Assembly (NCBI GenBank): GCA_023245155.1
Contig: JAHFKV010000001.1
Location: forward strand, 527,323 to 591,322
DNA: 64,000 bases
Origin: Candidatus Staskawiczbacteria bacterium
GTDB taxonomy: Bacteria; Patescibacteriota; Minisyncoccia; Minisyncoccales; Staskawiczbacteraceae
Direction of reading: 5' to 3'
Part shown: positions 1,634 through 48,843 of the stretch, piece by piece
How positions within the stretch are numbered: position 1 is the first letter of the stretch
Layout: each line of letters opens with the position of its first letter
The notes under the pieces: generated by a model
What the model saw: the letters and a program-made list of their open reading frames with translations, nothing else
Databases searched by the model: none
Told to the model about the DNA's origin: nothing
Made by a program: the position numbers and the translations under genes

Positions 1634-2730
1634 GCCCCCGACGTGCAAATGTCTACTATCGCCAACTCCAGAGGGAGCTGTAAAATGGTAGCGTATTTCA
1701 TGTTTTGCTCAGCTTCAATAAATTTTTCCAGCCAGTTCTGCAAGTCTTTTTCCTTCACTTCTGCAATTTGAGTCTTCATGACTTCCACTTCTTCGGCAGT
1801 CAAGCCACCGCTATCTTTAGCTAAAAATTCCGGATTGATTTTCAGCATCAATGCCTGGCGTAAGTAAAACACCAAAGTTTTGGTAAATTCTTGCAAATCT
1901 ATGCCTTCGTCAGCCATTTGGTTAATGTACAAAAGGGCTTCTTTTGTGGCTTGTCGCACAATAAAATCTACCAGTTTTGAAATCTGTTCAACTTCAACCA
2001 TCCCCAATAATTCCTTAATATCTTGGGTTTTTAACATGTCGCCAGAGAAATTCATGCATTTGTCTAACAAGGATTCGGCATCCCGGAATGATCCGCGAGC
2101 ATTCAAGGCAATTACGTTTAAGGCTGATTCCTCAAATTTCACCCCTTCTTTTTTTAATATGAACTTCAACTTTTCTATGATTTGATTGCTATGCAAGCGC
2201 TTGAAATCAAAACGCTGGCAGCGGGAAATAATGGTGGCAATCATTTTATGGGCTTCGGTGGTAGCCAGCATAAAAATAGCATGGGAGGGCGGCTCTTCAA
2301 GGGTTTTCAGCAATGCATTAGCAGCCGCTTTGCTCAATTGATGACACTCGTCAATGATAAATATCTTATATTTACTTTTTACCGGTGCGAATTTTATTCC
2401 ACTGATTAACTCGCGCACCTCATCAACACCGGTGTGACTGGCCGCGTCAATTTCTATTAAATCCATTGAATTCCCGTTAGTAATCTCAAGGCAAGAATCA
2501 CATTTATTGCAAGGATTGGCATCCACTGGTTTTTGGCAATTGATGGTTTTCGCAAAAATCCTGGCAATGGTAGTTTTACCCGAACCCCTCGGTCCGGTAA
2601 ATAAATAGGCATGCGAAATTGAATCAGCTTTAATTGAATTTTGCAGCGTTTGCACAATATGTTCTTGCGCAATAATTTCCTTAAAACTCTGTGGCCTATA
2701 TTTTCTGTATAATACTAAATTTTCTGGCAT
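1630..2730 (-). CDS. dnaX: DNA polymerase III subunit gamma/tau
   Basis: YRPQSF, GPRGSGKTT Walker A, CNKCDSC zinc module, AAA+ clamp-loader layout. ATG at 2730 (MPENLVLY...) preferred over ORF-track GTG at 2757 because it coincides with the conserved leader cassette. Stop is TGA. Confidence 0.9.
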   Translation of the reverse strand: MPENLVLYRKYRPQSFKEIIAQEHIVQTLQNSIKADSISHAYLFTGPRGSGKTTIARIFAKTINCQKPVDANPCNKCDSCLEITNGNSMDLIEIDAASHTGVDEVRELISGIKFAPVKSKYKIFIIDECHQLSKAAANALLKTLEEPPSHAIFMLATTEAHKMIATIISRCQRFDFKRLHSNQIIEKLKFILKKEGVKFEESALNVIALNARGSFRDAESLLDKCMNFSGDMLKTQDIKELLGMVEVEQISKLVDFIVRQATKEALLYINQMADEGIDLQEFTKTLVFYLRQALMLKINPEFLAKDSGGLTAEEVEVMKTQIAEVKEKDLQNWLEKFIEAEQNMKYATILQLPLELAIVDICTSGA

Positions 2731-2778
2731 GAATTTTGAACAAAGTAAGAAAGTCACAAAACTGCGACACCTTATTCG
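2728..2778 (-). repeat. Conserved 5'-UTR cassette, copy a (upstream of dnaX AUG)
   Basis: Minus-sense CGAATAAGGTGTCGCAGTTTTGTGACTTTCTTACTTTGTTCAAAATTC-ATG; one of four copies (see findings). Confidence 0.6.
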
Positions 2779-24715: not shown

Positions 24716-24787
24716 CTCAATATTCTGTGGTTCATATATGTAAGTTTAAATACCTAAAATCTGTATCTATAAACTCACGCTAAAAAA

Positions 24788-28237
<3,450 letters not shown>

Positions 28238-28370
28238 TATTTTCTTGCGTAAGTAATAGATACAGATTTTATGTATCTGATGAACTTATATATATGCTTT
28301 GATTACCTTTTATCCTGTTAAATAAGACCCTTCTTAAAATTAACAGAATAGCAAATTTTCAACGTACTTG

Positions 28371-28568: not shown

Positions 28569-29258
28569 TCAATGCTTATGATTAATTTTTTCCCACACAT
28601 CAGCAATCACTTCTTGCGCAGTTTCTTTGCCGCCCAAACCAATAGCAATAGCTATTCCCAAGCCCAGGGTACCAACAATCCCCCATACCATGGCCATATA
28701 CAATGTTTTCACTAATTCGCTGTTTGGCAATAACTGTTCCAAAATTAAAAAAATCGTAAAAATCCAAATCGCCCATCGCACAATGGAACCGGCAAGATAA
28801 GCATGGCCGATTTTCATCCGTTCCACGCTCACCCTGATTACTTTTTCAATAATGTCAGAAATAATCACGGCCACAACGAAAATCAGAGAAGCCACCACCA
28901 CGTTCGGCAGATAATCTAACACCTGGGTAAGAATCGTTCCAAACTGGGCCAAGTGCAAAATATCCACGGCAATCAAAAGCGACAAAATCACAAACACCCA
29001 CTTGAAAATTGCTCCAATGAATTCTGCCGGGTGTACATGAATATTTGCCTTTTGCAAAGCATGCTGCCAGCCTTCTTTATCAAATAACGTATTAAACTTT
29101 ATCGACTTTAAAATTTCTGTGACAATCTTTCCAATCCCCACAGAAATTAAATACCCTATCACAAAAACGACGATTGCCAATATCAGCCTTCCCACAAAAC
29201 CTACGGCGTCTTGTAAAAACGGCTGAATAACGGCTAGCGACCAATCGTTATAGTCCAT
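28569..29258 (-). CDS. Polytopic membrane protein with conserved TM-helix repeats (mechanosensitive-channel-related family)
   Basis: 229 aa, ~6 hydrophobic helices, preceded by the conserved leader cassette (copy b). Confidence 0.5.
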   Translation of the reverse strand: MDYNDWSLAVIQPFLQDAVGFVGRLILAIVVFVIGYLISVGIGKIVTEILKSIKFNTLFDKEGWQHALQKANIHVHPAEFIGAIFKWVFVILSLLIAVDILHLAQFGTILTQVLDYLPNVVVASLIFVVAVIISDIIEKVIRVSVERMKIGHAYLAGSIVRWAIWIFTIFLILEQLLPNSELVKTLYMAMVWGIVGTLGLGIAIAIGLGGKETAQEVIADVWEKINHKH

Positions 29259-29306
29259 GAATTTGGAACAAAGCGAGAAATTCGCAATAGTTGCGACACC
29301 TTACTT
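29256..29306 (-). repeat. Conserved 5'-UTR cassette, copy b
   Basis: Minus-sense AAGTAAGGTGTCGCAACTATTGCGAATTTCTCGCTTTGTTCCAAATTC-ATG. Confidence 0.6.
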
Positions 29307-29326: not shown

Positions 29327-29917
29327 TCAATTATCCTCCCAGACTTTGGGCAGGTCAATAGAAAGTTCTACACACTTTTGATCTGTAGCTGTCTCAAAGG
29401 TTAAGCCTGTGGCGCACAGGGCAATCGCCCGTTCATCGTCCCACTTGGGTCCGCCATATTTCACGTCGCCTACAATTGGTAAATGAGCAGCTGAAAGCTG
29501 TTTCCGGATTTGGTGGTACTTTCCTCCTTCTATAGTAATCTTCAACAAAGAATATTTTTCTTTTTTTACTAATTGGTAGTGCAGCACCATATCATCGTTA
29601 ATGAGAGTGTCTTGTTTTTTTGGTTCACCCACCACCATTGCATGATATATTTTTCCAATCTTCCGATTCCTGAATTGCTCCGAAAGCCGGTTGGCGCCCT
29701 TGCTAGTCTTAGCAAACAGCATAATACCTGAAACTGGTCTATCAAGCCGGTGCAATAACCCTAAAAATACATTCCCCGGTTTTTTGTATTTCTCTTTCAG
29801 ATATTTTTTCACGGCATCAATCATGCTTTCGTCGCCGGTTTTATCTCCTTGCGCCAAAACTCCCGCCGGTTTTACTACGGCAATAATATGATTGTCTTCA
29901 TACAAAACGTTGATCAT
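29327..29917 (-). CDS. RluA-family pseudouridine synthase
   Basis: HRLDRPVSGIMLFAKT catalytic-Asp motif, ~196 aa. Confidence 0.8.
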   Translation of the reverse strand: MINVLYEDNHIIAVVKPAGVLAQGDKTGDESMIDAVKKYLKEKYKKPGNVFLGLLHRLDRPVSGIMLFAKTSKGANRLSEQFRNRKIGKIYHAMVVGEPKKQDTLINDDMVLHYQLVKKEKYSLLKITIEGGKYHQIRKQLSAAHLPIVGDVKYGGPKWDDERAIALCATGLTFETATDQKCVELSIDLPKVWEDN

Positions 29918-30711: not shown

Positions 30712-30764
30712 CTTTCTATACCCTTCCATCTATTGCCTTCGGCATTATAAGTCGGGTATAAGTG
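30712..30764. repeat. 3'-UTR hairpin repeat, copy 1 (TATACCC...cUUCGg...GGGTATA)
   Basis: 53-nt element 15 nt after ychF stop; second near-identical copy at 40200-40251. Confidence 0.55.
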
Positions 30765-30779
30765 TTCGCTGCGACTCCC

Positions 30780-33595: not shown

Positions 33596-34048
33596 TTATA
33601 CGATCCTCAACACTTTTATTATTACTTTTTTGGCGCCGGCAGTGTAATCAAATGTATCGCCGGTTTTTTTTCCCATTAATTTTTGTCCAAATGGCGATTC
33701 GTATGAAATTTTATTTTTCAAAATGTCAGCTTCGGTTGGCGATGTAATCTGATATTCTTCTTCTTTACCGGCAAACAGCATTTTCACCCTTGAGCCAATC
33801 TGGATTTTTCCGTCTTCTACTTTATCTTTAATGACTGCAACGCTAATAGCATTTTCCAGTTGTTCAATCCTGCCCAGTAAAAAACTTTTCATGTTGCGGG
33901 CTTCGTGGTATGCCGAATTTTCTTTCAAATCACCAAAAGCGGCTGCTTCAGCAATCAACTTAACTATCCGCCTCATTTCAGTGGTTTTTAATTCTTTCAG
34001 TTCATCTTTTAGTTTTTTCAAACCCTCTTTGGTAAAATACTCTGGCAT
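33596..34048 (-). CDS. greA: Transcription elongation factor GreA
   Basis: N-terminal coiled-coil (EGLKKLKDELKELK), C-terminal FKBP-like domain, ~150 aa. ATG at 34048 inside conserved leader cassette copy c. Confidence 0.85.
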   Translation of the reverse strand: MPEYFTKEGLKKLKDELKELKTTEMRRIVKLIAEAAAFGDLKENSAYHEARNMKSFLLGRIEQLENAISVAVIKDKVEDGKIQIGSRVKMLFAGKEEEYQITSPTEADILKNKISYESPFGQKLMGKKTGDTFDYTAGAKKVIIKVLRIV

Positions 34049-34138
34049 GAATTTTGAGCGAAGCGAGAAATTCACTTCAGAAATAAGGCTAAACTATACC
34101 GTTACTTTGAGGGCTTATTTCTGTTGCGACACCTTATA
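34046..34138 (-). repeat. Conserved 5'-UTR cassette, copy c (with 47-nt hairpin insertion in the loop)
   Basis: AAGGTGTCGCAAC[AGAAATAAG...CTTATTTCT]GAAGTGAATTTCTCGCTTCGCTCAAAATTC-ATG. Confidence 0.55.
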
Positions 34139-34194
34139 GTATACTGATTTCTTACAAATTTTCAAGACAAGAAAAAAACCACAGTACAAAGAAA

Positions 34195-34345
34195 GTGGCT
34201 TTGAAATGGAGTCAACGGAGCTCGAACCCGCATTTACCGATCACACCCCTAGTCTCTCGAAAAATGCGAAGACGTCTACTCAGCGCATTGTCTATAACCA
34301 GGGTTAGCAACCAGCATGTCTTTCTCCTTTTAGACGATGGCCCCT
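34195..34345 (-). ncRNA. Candidate ncRNA C2 with tRNA-like 3' end (T-arm + acceptor-like strand), class undetermined
   Basis: Minus-sense ends ..AUGCGGGUUCGAGCUCCGUUGACUCCA: T-stem GCGGG/UCCGU, loop UUCGAGC, then UGACUCC-A. No matching 5' acceptor strand found, so not a canonical tRNA; possibly tmRNA-like or a tRNA-like 3' module. Confidence 0.3.
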
Positions 34346-34529: not shown

Positions 34530-34952
34530 CTTAGATGAGTGAGTGTGGACCGAAGTCCACGATGAAACTAACTGGAAAGAACAAAAAATAATGAAATGTC
34601 CCACTGAAAGGAGCCCGGCGTCGCCCAATCGCCGAAGCCATCAATCAGCGGGACCGGAAATATTCTTTGTGATAAAAAAATACTTTCGGTCCCACTGATT
34701 TTCCCTTCCAGAGCGATCATAGCAAAAGCCATGATCCTTGTCAATAACTAACCACCTTTCTGTTTAGTTTCTTAAAGTTGTTCCGAATAGCGGGTTTTCT
34801 GCCGAACCGCGCTAAACGCATATCAGTTATAAGTTACTAACCTTCGCCAAAGCTTCGACCCCCGCTGAGCGGGAGGCGCCTTAGCGAAAATTATTCCGCC
34901 TATAACTTAGTCAACGCTCAATATTCTGGATAAATCCAAAATATTTAAAAAA

Positions 34953-36405
34953 ATGATCCACGAGCAGCTTCCGCTACCCGTGCCTTGTTACGACTTAGCC
35001 CCTCTTACTGAATCTAGCTTAGGACCTGTAAGGGTACTTCGGCTATCCCCAGCTTGCTTGGCTTGACGGGCGGTGAGTACAAGACTCAGGAACGTATTCA
35101 TCGCCACGTAGCTGATTGGCGATTACTAGCAATTCCAGCTTCATGAGGGCGAATTTCAGCCCTCAATCCGAACTGAGACCGGCTTTGGTGGGATTATCCT
35201 CCAGCTTGCGCTTTCGGTCCCATTGTACCGGCCATTGTACCACGTGTGCAGCCCAGGACATCAAGGGCCATGCTGATTTGGCGTCATCCTCACCTTCCTC
35301 CCAATTATCTCGGGCAGTCCCCTGTGACATGTAAAACACAGGGCAAGGGTTGCGTTCGTTACCCGAATTAACGGTACGTCTCAAGACACGAACTGACGAC
35401 AACCATGCAGCACCTGCCCAACTGTCTTGCGAAGTACTACTTTCATAGTATGGTCAGTTGGGTTTCTAGTCCTGGTAAGGTTCTTCGTTTGTTGTCGAAT
35501 TAAGCCACATGGTCCACTGCTTGTGTGAGTCCCCGTCTATTCCTTTGAGTTTTAAACTTGCGTTCGTACTTCCCAGGCGGGATGCTTAACGCGTTAGCTT
35601 CGCCACTGGCAGGGTCGACACTGCCAATAGCCAGCATCCATCGTTTACAGCGTGGACTACAAGGGTATCTAATCCTTTTTGCTCCCCACGCTTTCGTTGT
35701 TCAGTGTCAGGGTCGCCCCAGCAAACTGCCTTCGCTTTTGGTGTTCCCGATGATATCAACGGATTTCACCCCTACTCCATCGGTTCCGTTTGCCTCTAAC
35801 GCCCTCTTAGTCGAGCAGTATTCTAAACAGCTCAAAGGTTAAGCCGATGAGGTTTAATTTAGAACTTACTTGACCACCTACCAACCCTTTACGCCCAATA
35901 AATCCGGGTAACGCTCGGGGATTCTGTATTACCGCTCCTGCTGGCACAGAATTAGGATCCCCTTATTCATCTGGTACAATCAATAACTTTTTCCCAGATA
36001 AAAGATGTTTACACCCCGAAGGGCTTCATCCATCACGAAATGTCGCTCCGTCAGACTTTCGTCCATTGCGGAAGATTCTCGACTGCAGCCTCCCGTAGGA
36101 GTATGGCCCGTGTCGCAGTGCCATTCTTGGGGGTCGCGCTCTCACGCCCCCTACCCGTCATCGCCTTGGTGGGCTTTTACCCCGCCAACAAGCTGATAGG
36201 CCGCGGACCATTCACAAAGCGCATTGCTGCTTTACCCTTGCGGGACTATGGGAAATTACCCCGTCTTTCGACGAGCTGTGCCCCACTTTGCGGTATGTAC
36301 CCACGTGTTACTAAGCCGTTCGCCGGTGCCTTGCGGCCCCTTGACTTGCATGCCGGTATCCACATTTCCAGCGTTCACCCTGAGCTAGGATCAAACTCTC
36401 AAAAT
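34953..36405 (-). rRNA. rrs: 16S ribosomal RNA (3' tail without canonical anti-Shine-Dalgarno)
   Basis: 5' ..AGAGTTTGATCCTAGCTCAGGGTGAACGCTGG; 530 loop, 1390-1400 region (GTACACACCGCCCGTCA) and 1492 region (AAGTCGTAACAAGG) present in reverse complement; helix 45 GGAA loop intact. Then GGAUCAUUUUUUUA in place of GGAUCACCUCCUUA. Confidence 0.95.
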
Positions 36406-37130: not shown

Positions 37131-37442
37131 TTATTTCTTTCTCTTGTCCAATTCTTGGGCCTTCTTACGCATCCCGTGCAACAACACATCAACTTTCCGT
37201 TCCACTTTTAACACCCAAACCCTGAATTTTGAAAGAAGTTTTTGTAGCCACACCTGTTTATGAAAAAAATCAAAATACAAACTCTTTATTTTTTTTTCTA
37301 TCTGGGCAATGGTTTCATGCTTTTTTAATCCATGATGTCCGTTTTGTGGCAGTTGCACTAACACTGGAATTTTTCTGGCCAAAATAAGGATAAATCCGGC
37401 AGCACTAATTAAAAAAATAATGAATGCAATTAATTGAATCAT
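37131..37442 (-). CDS. Small membrane protein (103 aa), hypothetical
   Basis: N-terminal TM MIQLIAFIIFLISAAGFILILA, basic remainder; preceded by leader cassette copy d. Confidence 0.45.
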   Translation of the reverse strand: MIQLIAFIIFLISAAGFILILARKIPVLVQLPQNGHHGLKKHETIAQIEKKIKSLYFDFFHKQVWLQKLLSKFRVWVLKVERKVDVLLHGMRKKAQELDKRKK

Positions 37443-37492
37443 GAATTTTGAACGAAGTGAGAAGTTCGCAATAGTTGCGACACCTTATTCGA
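37440..37492 (-). repeat. Conserved 5'-UTR cassette, copy d
   Basis: Minus-sense CGAATAAGGTGTCGCAACTATTGCGAACTTCTCACTTCGTTCAAAATTC-ATG. Confidence 0.6.
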
Positions 37493-38968: not shown

Positions 38969-39721
38969 ATGGAACAAGAAAAGCAATCAGTAATCATAGA
39001 AATCCGAGCAGGCACCGGCGGAGACGAGGCTGGGCTTTTTGTGCGTGACATGCACCGCATGTACTCAAAATATGCCGCCAGCCAAGGCTGGTCAAACAAA
39101 ATTATGGATTCGGATATGTCCGACGTGGGCGGCTACAAACAAATTGTCTTTGAACTTTCCGGATCGGGCGCCTACGACGCCATGCAATACGAAAGCGGCG
39201 TGCATCGCGTCCAGCGCATTCCCAAAACAGAAAAACAAGGGCGCGTGCATACCTCAACCATCACCATTGCTGTTTTAAATAAACCCAAAAGAATTGAATT
39301 AATTATCCGGCCCGAAGATTTAAAAATTGATACCTACCGTTCTTCTGGAGCCGGTGGACAACACGTTAACAAAACCGAGTCGGCTATTAGAATAACCCAC
39401 AAGCCAACGGGAGTTGTTGTAACTTCGCAATCGGAAAGAAGCCAGCACCAAAACAAAGAAAATGCCATGGGAATTTTGGCCGCCAGAATTTTGCAGGCGC
39501 AGGAAGAGTCCGATATGTCGGCGCTAACCGAAGAACGCCGACAACAAATCGGCTGGGCCAAGAGAAGCGAAAAAACCCGCACCTATAATTATCCGCAAAA
39601 TAGAATCACCGACCATCGCATTGGTAAAAGTTGGCACAACCTGGAAGATATTGTGGAGGGCAACATGGAGCCCATCATGAAAGCGTTTAAAAATTTAAAA
39701 AAAGAAGAATCGGCTCAATAA
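38969..39721 (+). CDS. prfA: Peptide chain release factor 1-like, lacking N-terminal domain 1
   Basis: RVQRIPKTEKQGRVHTSTITIAV (PxT tripeptide as PKT), SSGAGGQHVNKTESAIRITH GGQ motif; begins at the equivalent of E. coli RF1 residue ~110 with an in-frame TGA 15 nt upstream. Confidence 0.8.
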   Translation: MEQEKQSVIIEIRAGTGGDEAGLFVRDMHRMYSKYAASQGWSNKIMDSDMSDVGGYKQIVFELSGSGAYDAMQYESGVHRVQRIPKTEKQGRVHTSTITIAVLNKPKRIELIIRPEDLKIDTYRSSGAGGQHVNKTESAIRITHKPTGVVVTSQSERSQHQNKENAMGILAARILQAQEESDMSALTEERRQQIGWAKRSEKTRTYNYPQNRITDHRIGKSWHNLEDIVEGNMEPIMKAFKNLKKEESAQ

Positions 39722-40199: not shown

Positions 40200-40251
40200 C
40201 CTTTATACCCTTCTATCTATTACCTTCGGCATAATAAGTCGGGTATAAGTG
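40200..40251. repeat. 3'-UTR hairpin repeat, copy 2
   Basis: CCTTTATACCCTTCTATCTATTACCTTCGGCATAATAAGTCGGGTATAAGTG, 24 nt after the SLT-protein stop; 3 substitutions versus copy 1. Confidence 0.55.
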
Positions 40252-40275
40252 TAGAAAAATTGTGATTTTTCAACC

Positions 40276-48824: not shown

Positions 48825-48843
48825 GAATTTATGGATACCTTAG

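Follow-up and report, generated by a model that had tools for sequence, protein, structure and literature searches.

A probable mobile palindromic element abutting the start codons of unrelated genes in a Candidatus Staskawiczbacteria genome

Why should genes that have nothing in common by function be preceded, directly at their start codons, by the same short sequence? This question is raised by a 64-kb stretch of DNA from Candidatus Staskawiczbacteria (contig JAHFKV010000001.1, positions 527,323 to 591,322; hereafter the window; about 6 kb more of the source genome was read beyond it), in which a conserved cassette of about 47 nt stands in front of dnaX, greA, and two further genes. A preliminary description viewed the cassette as a functional RNA element of the 5' untranslated region (UTR), that is, a translational operator, an alternative ribosome-recruitment signal or a shared regulator site. 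The observation on which that view was founded proved real in part, and the interpretation is likewise supported in part. The best-supported reading, which we consider probable, is that the cassette belongs to a family of small, mobile palindromes of intergenic regions, comparable to repetitive extragenic palindromic (REP) sequences and miniature inverted-repeat transposable elements (MITEs), which is restricted to a subgroup of Candidatus Staskawiczbacteria; this reading accounts for the unrelated genes, for an occurrence that is patchy, for indels that are precise and for a sequence that has stayed conserved.

The four copies described previously were all recovered as single units on the minus strand, each ending exactly at a genuine ATG. 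Copy a (47 nt, 2731..2777) consists of the hairpin GAAUAAGGU/GUCGCA-loop-UGUGAC/ACUUUGUUC and the tail AAAAUUC, and is wedged between the dnaX start codon (2728-2730) and a single C at position 2778 that precedes the stop codon of a GtrA gene (2779-2781). Copy b (48 nt, 29259..29306), which reads AAGUAAGGUG-UCGCAA-CUA-UUGCGA-AUUUCU-CGCUUUGUUC-CAAAUUC, abuts the ATG (29256-29258) of a gene for a 229-aa MscS-like channel and has a pseudouridine synthase gene upstream. Copy c (89 nt, 34049..34137) abuts the greA ATG (34046-34048), carries a 44-nt nested hairpin (34079-34122) inside its inner loop, and has a promoter on its upstream side. Copy d (48 nt, 37443..37490), with the sequence GAAUAAGGUG-UCGCAA-CUA-UUGCGA-ACUUCU-CACUUCGUUC-AAAAUUC, begins 6 nt past the stop codon of tsf (EF-Ts) and ends at the ATG (37440-37442) of a gene for a 103-aa protein that has no Pfam match. 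The motif AAGGUG, noted before at the 5' edge, is part of AAGGTGTCGC, which heads all four copies, and the 3' half (TTCTYRCTTYGYTCMAAATTC+ATG) occurs four times in the window compared with an expectation of 0.00 from shuffled sequence. A covariance model built from six copies (a to d and two homologues from relatives, L006 and L027, which are discussed below) assigned 56-80 bits to the four window copies and, applied to both strands of the window, found no other copy and none in antisense. Four of the roughly 50 genes in the window therefore carry the element. That the start codon occupies a fixed position was upheld as well: 120 DnaX homologues start with M-x(1-4)-VLYRKYRP at the methionine abutting copy a, which makes that ATG the true start, and the element of L006 (Candidatus Staskawiczbacteria nzgw419) abuts the canonical dnaK start MSKILGIDLGTT.

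These start sites bear on the possibility that the element is itself coding, either as an N-terminal extension (copies a and c have a GTG at -27), as an upstream open reading frame, or as an antisense peptide MNFE(Q/R)SEKF. An in-frame GTG is present in a, c and L006 and is used by some gene callers (P0002, 375 aa), and in the GTG frame a number of variable sites coincide with third codon positions; however, the wobble positions are common to the sense and antisense frames, so that this periodicity does not discriminate. Moreover, in copies b and d a TAA lies in frame and no start codon is available upstream, the L027 element is shifted out of frame by 2 nt, copy a has 1 nt less, the lengths of the insertions are not divisible by 3, and the DnaX, DnaK and EF-P homologues all start at the downstream ATG. 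The longer coding extension that the preliminary description had itself considered is thus contradicted, and a coding role of any kind is barely credible.

Folding shows the whole element to be one long imperfect hairpin, of which the 6-bp stem reported earlier is the inner part only. That stem, UCGCAA:UUGCGA, is indeed present as an inner helix (P2) of about 6 bp, but an outer helix (P1) of about 10 bp had been overlooked, in which GAAUAAGGUG, with the AAGGUG it holds, pairs with CRCUUYGUUC of the conserved 3' half. Between P1 and P2 there is a 6-nt internal loop on the 3' side, (A/C)(U/C)UUCU, and P1 and P2 together form a hairpin of 40-41 nt. The P2 loop measures 3-4 nt in copies a, b and d and accepts nested hairpins elsewhere: 44 nt in copy c, where the insertion previously given as 47 nt is confirmed as a hairpin but not in its length, the same insert in L027, and a different hairpin of 19 nt in L006. 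The helices are followed by the 7-nt tail AAAAUUC, unpaired in the minimum free energy folds of five of the six copies, and then by the AUG.

The hairpin is supported by complementarity, without covariation. Across six copies and 16 pairs, 85% of the cells are standard pairs, as opposed to 32-45% when the 3' strand is slid out of register; two-sided changes were seen at none of the 16 pairs, and column shuffles score as well as the real alignment. The compensatory change ascribed to copy a, and with it the covariation claimed earlier, comes down to one-sided, wobble-compatible changes, of which there are seven (G-C/G-U, U-A/U-G, G-U/A-U and A-U/G-U); one position is A-U or A.C, certain pairs are G-U in all six copies, and the outer pairs of copy c are mismatched. 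Sense and antisense folds are about equally stable in five of the copies, while copy a folds much better as sense RNA. No match to a self-cleaving ribozyme or to any other Rfam family was obtained, whether gathering thresholds were applied or the limit was relaxed to E<=10, and an intrinsic terminator was rejected because no U-tract follows the hairpin.

The case for mobility comes from relatives of the host. Scans with the 3'-half pattern, covering one genome per species and the JGI metagenomes, returned 61 stretches, among which L006 and L027 are the only true homologues and the remainder, except for an alphaproteobacterial palindromic repeat described below, fits chance expectation. In L027 a copy-c-type element stands before efp with 2 additional nt ahead of the ATG, so that the distance to the AUG is 0 nt in five copies and 2 nt in the sixth, all six lying in sense orientation. 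The distribution is patchy: no divergent copies were found in about 300 kb of Staskawiczbacteria loci by regular expression (<=6 mismatches), nhmmer or the covariance model, and other Staskawiczbacteria, represented by about 130 kb of non-redundant sequence, yielded no further copy. Two scans of viral sequence gave chance matches only, and BLAST searches of phages and plasmids gave nothing. Five GC-rich contigs of the Alphaproteobacteria type (L003, L018, L029, L031, L040) have nested palindromic repeats upstream of genes that hold GAATTTCTCGCTTCGCTCAAAATTC, of which 25 nt are identical to the 3' half of copy c, probably by chance given the amount of sequence searched.

At three genes the site is occupied in one genome and unoccupied in others. 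The dnaX site is filled in the window, ...GTATTTAAAAAGTAA-C-[47 nt]-ATGCCA (that is, AAAAAGTAA-C-[47 nt]-ATG), and empty in the closest relative, L076 (DnaX identity 88%), whose metagenome is also the source of L027. There the junction reads ...GTGTTTAAAAAGTAA-T-ATGAAC (that is, AAAAAGTAA-T-ATG), so that TAA-T-ATG faces TAA-C-[47]-ATG. The site is empty also in L077, L062 and L065, where stop and start codons overlap or the spacer is <=4 nt. The efp site shows the reverse pattern, being filled in L027 and empty in L152, L153 and the window's own organism (L146), in which a 12-nt spacer, TAA-AAAAATACGCGC-ATG, precedes the gene; the empty junction reads ..ACGACC-ATG and the filled one ..ACG-[element]-AC-ATG. 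The dnaK site is filled in L006 only. In L069-71 dnaK is preceded by a TATAAT box and then by a tandem CGAAATTCAAAATT ending in TTCAAAATTA-ATG (L069, 9960-10000), which represents the tail box without the hairpin, and in L072-75 neither the element nor this arrangement is present. No target-site duplication was seen at either of the reconstructed junctions (dnaX and efp). The presence/absence polymorphism at orthologous sites by which MITEs are recognized is accordingly found at dnaX, efp and dnaK, and at the same three genes the element lacks the conservation upstream of orthologues that would be expected of a cis-regulatory RNA.

The sequence of the element has been retained more faithfully than its location. 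The variant with the 44-nt insert stands before greA in the window but before efp in L027, and these two elements, at different loci, are identical at 86/92 positions (93%), nested hairpin included. Core identity amounts to 76-88% within the genome and 79-91% between genomes, and sequence sub-types are shared across genomes. Four-fold degenerate sites, on the other hand, are near saturation between the window organism and the L027/L076 organism (49/99 identical for dnaX, 27/63 for efp), which implies that the source copies are under constraint while their locations turn over. A variable location combined with a conserved sequence is what one would expect of a mobile repeat, and the opposite of what a cis-regulatory RNA or riboswitch-like leader would show. 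As a separate observation, efp in the L006 genome is preceded by an unrelated repetitive spacer of 72 nt (L149, 9929-10000; TTATCAAG..., with CTTTATAACTTT repeats), and it may be common for short repeats to occupy the mid-length spacers of these genomes.

It is against this background that the older view of the cassette as a cis-regulatory operator, bound by one protein or small RNA and defining a regulon of dnaX, greA and membrane proteins, has to be weighed. The hairpin is conserved, as are the tail and the internal loop (A/C)(U/C)UUCU, which is single-stranded, the orientation is sense in 6/6 copies, some pairs are G-U in every copy, and copy a is far better folded as sense RNA, all of which would suit such an operator. 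Nevertheless, the set of genes (dnaX, greA, efp, dnaK, an MscS-like channel and a small protein) is incoherent, orthologous genes do not keep the element, two-sided compensatory changes are absent, five of the six copies fold about equally well on both strands, and no Rfam family emerged even at permissive thresholds. A shared regulator site is not supported by the orthologous dnaX, efp and dnaK genes, and an operator is judged quite unlikely.

Another explanation turns on the host's ribosome. Homologues of DnaX, DnaK and EF-P assign the window to Candidatus Staskawiczbacteria, within the Parcubacteria. The 3' end of the 16S rRNA (34946-34975, minus strand) reads ...GGAUCAUUUUUUUA, with U's in place of the anti-Shine-Dalgarno CCUCC; the terminus, GGAUCAUUUUUUU, thus offers no anti-Shine-Dalgarno (anti-SD), GGAUCAUUUUUUUA standing where E. 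coli has GGAUCACCUCCUUA. The earlier suggestion of an SD-less organism is in this way confirmed, and it matches the finding that about half of the Parcubacteria are without the anti-SD motif, in a paper that gives no account of start-codon selection (PMC9297842). The AAGGUG hexamer, also put forward as a possible signal, does not hold up as one: its position is 38-43 nt before the AUG, P1 keeps it base-paired and, as the 16S rRNA is without CCUCC, it cannot be a Shine-Dalgarno site. A site of that kind would be complementary to the 16S 3' end at 5-9 nt from the AUG, which is not the case here. Pairing of the element with 16S or 23S rRNA, or with the flanks of these rRNAs, was rejected too, there being no consistent target across copies; copies a and c alone match, at 11/12 positions, a segment that begins or lies about 60 nt beyond the 16S 3' end. 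Ordinary starts of the window have a characteristic context: in the 15 nt before 38 other starts, A is enriched (42% vs 30%) and G depleted (13% vs 23%), position -1 is most often C (16/38), and a GGAG-like motif occurs at 2/38. A search of these 38 genes for a hairpin upstream of the AUG as a general rule gave no signal. Spacers between co-directional genes have a median of 19 nt, and 19/47 are <=4 nt or overlapping. An interaction between such A-rich leaders and the U-run at the 16S 3' end (A-tract:U-tail) is conceivable.

In such a host the cassette might be a portable initiation module, in which a helix ending 7-9 nt before the AUG docks in place of the SD:anti-SD duplex, or acts as a standby platform, while the A/U tail enters the mRNA channel; the host would recruit it to boost or uncouple the translation of particular genes. 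The abutment to the AUG, exact in five of six copies and 2 nt off in the sixth, fits this proposal, as does the placement of the element at the 3' extreme of the spacer rather than anywhere within it. The distance from helix to AUG, 7-9 nt, equals the well-established classical SD spacing, the 16S rRNA has no anti-SD, the carrier genes include dnaK, efp, greA and dnaX, and the tail box TTCAAAATT(A/C)-ATG stands without a hairpin at dnaK of L069. In addition, helix h26, the contact of the SD helix, is reported to be conserved in Parcubacteria that lack the anti-SD (PMC9297842). However, only 4 of about 50 window genes have the element and the others show no upstream hairpin signal, orthologues in close relatives manage without it, covariation support is absent from the six-copy alignment, and copy c, directly behind its own promoter and with its outer pairs mismatched, would lose most of the outer helix. 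That the cassette is a self-contained initiation device, whose mobility would let the cell or the element itself install independent initiation at genes once translated only by stop/start coupling, is consequently regarded as unlikely.

A sigma-70-like sequence, TTGAAA-16-TATACT (34138..34165, minus strand; 10/12 match), ends directly 5' of copy c, and its predicted transcription start falls at AAGGUG, in which case copy c would be the entire greA 5' UTR. An intrinsic-terminator-like hairpin with a T-run (34172-34198) lies just upstream of this promoter. A second sigma-70-like sequence, TTGACC-17-GATAAT (29330..29358, minus strand), is located 23 nt upstream of copy b, within the end of the upstream gene. 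The promoter scan found these two and the promoters of the rRNA genes but none inside the element, in agreement with the earlier statement that it is not a simple promoter. The 3' half could still be imagined as a promoter (-35 TTGCGA, -10 CAAAAT/AAAATT), possibly one giving a leaderless mRNA, in view of the likeness of TTGCGA in copies b and d to a -35 box and the A/T-rich hexamer just ahead of the ATG. Yet the stable-RNA promoters of this genome are canonical (TTGACA-16/17-TAnnAT), the supposed -35 box reads AAGTGA in c, L006 and L027, a -10 box ending 1-2 nt before the ATG would place the transcription start inside the reading frame, and loop insertions of 16-44 nt leave the downstream part unchanged. 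A promoter role is highly improbable. Sigma-54 and extracytoplasmic function (ECF) sigma factor motifs and the CIRCE operator were discarded by eye, as sequence and spacing do not fit.

The intergenic position of the hairpin also invites comparison with signals of RNA processing or stability, such as an RNase III-type site or a protective stem-loop at the 5' or 3' end between cistrons, for which the RNase III sites between genes in the early mRNA of phage T7 and the stabilizing REPs may serve as analogues. An interrupted helix of 16-28 bp between co-directional genes of unrelated function would suit such a role, as would the start of copies a and d at 1-6 nt past a stop codon and the location of the copy c hairpin within a few nt of the predicted transcript 5' end. 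Processing alone, however, would leave the exact abutment to the AUG and the conserved tail unexplained, and as the primary role it is unlikely. An RNA punctuation function of this kind is plausible, however, and is compatible with a mobile element rather than exclusive of it.

How might a mobile element come to occupy such sites? In the mechanism we envisage, the unit would insert in sense orientation and without target-site duplication into a very short spacer, 0-2 nt 5' of a start codon. Its tail mimics the ordinary pre-AUG context of the organism, being A-rich and G-poor with C at -1, and since the tail supplies a native context to a ribosome without an anti-SD, the downstream gene would stay translatable even though the juxtaposition of stop and start codons is broken. 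In the transcript the hairpin would leave the AUG region open, and it probably acts as mRNA punctuation, that is, as a 5'-terminal or inter-cistronic stem-loop affecting stability or processing. Mobilization may have relied on a hairpin-recognizing transposase of the HUH/Y1 type or on microhomology-driven copying.

Several observations weigh against the interpretation of the cassette as a mobile repeat. All six copies are in sense and lie 0-2 nt from the AUG despite 12-20 nt of spacer on the 5' side in b, L006 and L027. A tolerated parasite should scatter within the spacer, and the element does not, which implies either that the start codon itself is targeted or that the position has been selected for function; CAT on the opposite strand, the start codon, is the sole flank in common (5/6 copies). 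Selection for the position would leave room for the less likely idea that the helix, ending at an SD-like distance from the AUG, assists initiation by a ribosome without an anti-SD. The element is conserved over its full length, internal loop and tail included, which exceeds the needs of recognition by a transposase. No transposase domain or RAYT was detected among the 38 window proteins scanned, and the element lacks a GTAG/CGTC tag, is not arranged as dimers and, the hairpin itself aside, has no terminal inverted repeats. Finally, the copy count rests on four copies in 64 kb and the empty/filled comparisons number two only.

Other repeats and unusual RNA genes of the window may be noted alongside the element. 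A second repeat family is represented by 49-nt copies at 30717-30765 and 40204-40252, which are 94% identical, fold as a nested hairpin TATACCC...GCCTTCGGC...GGGTATA, and each lie just beyond the 3' end of a minus-strand gene. The spacer CTAAGGTATCCATAAATTC (48825-48843), before the ATG of a PfkB-like kinase gene, combines both ends of the element (TAAGGTrTC ... AAATTC) without its middle, and the final 11 nt of the PPDK gene upstream recur in it as well; it may be a footprint, a precursor or a product of chance. The 23S rRNA gene (24780-28245) contains a group I intron (25075-25515), and the 23S and 16S genes are unlinked, lying 6.7 kb apart with protein genes between them. A tRNA-like 3' half (GGTTCGAGCTCC...CCA) at 34172-34344 (minus strand), followed by a terminator hairpin and T-run, scores 19.6 bits over 138 nt with the tRNA model, while ARAGORN finds nothing, whether introns are allowed or not. 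Lastly, a 250-aa class-I release factor (38969-39721, plus strand) matches PCRF positions 96-194 and the RF-1 domain only; its N-terminal part is seemingly missing, and no upstream frame was found.

What lends the element wider significance is its setting. The organism is devoid of the anti-SD, and its ordinary genes are led only by A-rich, G-poor sequence with C at -1. Here a constrained mobile hairpin-plus-tail of 47 nt has inserted precisely at start codons more than once and has separated genes that in relatives have adjoining or overlapping stop and start codons; the genes downstream, dnaX among them, are still intact. If the element is a mere hitch-hiker, then an active family of small repeats exists within a very compact genome of the candidate phyla radiation (CPR), and its tail marks the minimal upstream context that the ribosome tolerates; if it actively favours initiation, it would represent a novel type of signal for recruiting ribosomes. 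In both cases, the filled and empty alleles in co-occurring relatives constitute a natural insertion experiment on SD-independent initiation and the uncoupling of operons.

Comparison with known systems helps to place the element. It resembles the leaders that carry SD or translational-enhancer sequences in standing immediately upstream of the AUG with a helix ending at an SD-like spacing, but it differs in that the 16S rRNA here has no anti-SD and AAGGUG is 40 nt away and paired intramolecularly. The PeSL cassettes of T4-like phages, which combine a conserved intergenic stem-loop with an early promoter at indel boundaries (PMC2839356; PMC4122927), are likewise small and conserved, lie directly upstream of unrelated genes, and coincide with the indel boundaries of close relatives; however, PeSLs comprise a terminator and a promoter and are recombination points for the swapping of whole genes, whereas the present element has neither promoter nor U-tract and is itself the indel.

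Members of the IS200/IS605 family bear hairpins at both ends and have a defined tetra- or pentanucleotide target. The likeness here lies in hairpin-defined ends, strand- and orientation-specific insertion beside a short target, and the lack of a target-site duplication; in contrast, the element is one hairpin, its common flank is only the start codon (5/6), and no tnpA was found in the scanned window proteins. The MITEs, exemplified by Correia/NEMIS of Neisseria, RUP/BOX of pneumococcus, and ERIC, are 100-200 nt in length, with terminal inverted repeats and target-site duplications, and occur in both orientations at variable distances from genes. They share with the element a non-autonomous, hairpin-forming and co-transcribed nature, and they can alter mRNA processing or stability or bring expression signals, but the element is 47 nt long, generates no duplication and lies 0-2 nt from the AUG.

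REPs and the BIMEs that they compose are thought to be mobilized by RAYT tyrosine transposases. A REP family would be expected to number >100 copies per genome and to be accompanied by a RAYT gene; the window has four copies and no RAYT among its 38 scanned proteins, and the host is a CPR bacterium. The element also departs from BIMEs and REPINs in that its units are single and on one strand, with no opposite-orientation pairs, and from REPs in possessing a 7-nt single-stranded tail, in its position 5' of the downstream start, rather than simply after the upstream stop, and in its strictly sense orientation. The unpaired tag of REPs, GTAG or CGTC, is missing from both strands of the consensus and of copies a, b and d, the ends of the element being GAAUAAGG... 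and ...AAAAUUC. REPs are otherwise short imperfect palindromes found mostly between co-directional genes (PMC3733652), and the 40-41 nt hairpin was counted as falling within the intergenic palindromes of 20-40 bp that define them. Like REPs and BIMEs, the element is a repeated palindrome that is transcribed as an RNA hairpin, leaves no target-site duplication and is patchily distributed among related genomes (PMC3733652), and by form and location REPs are its closest family.

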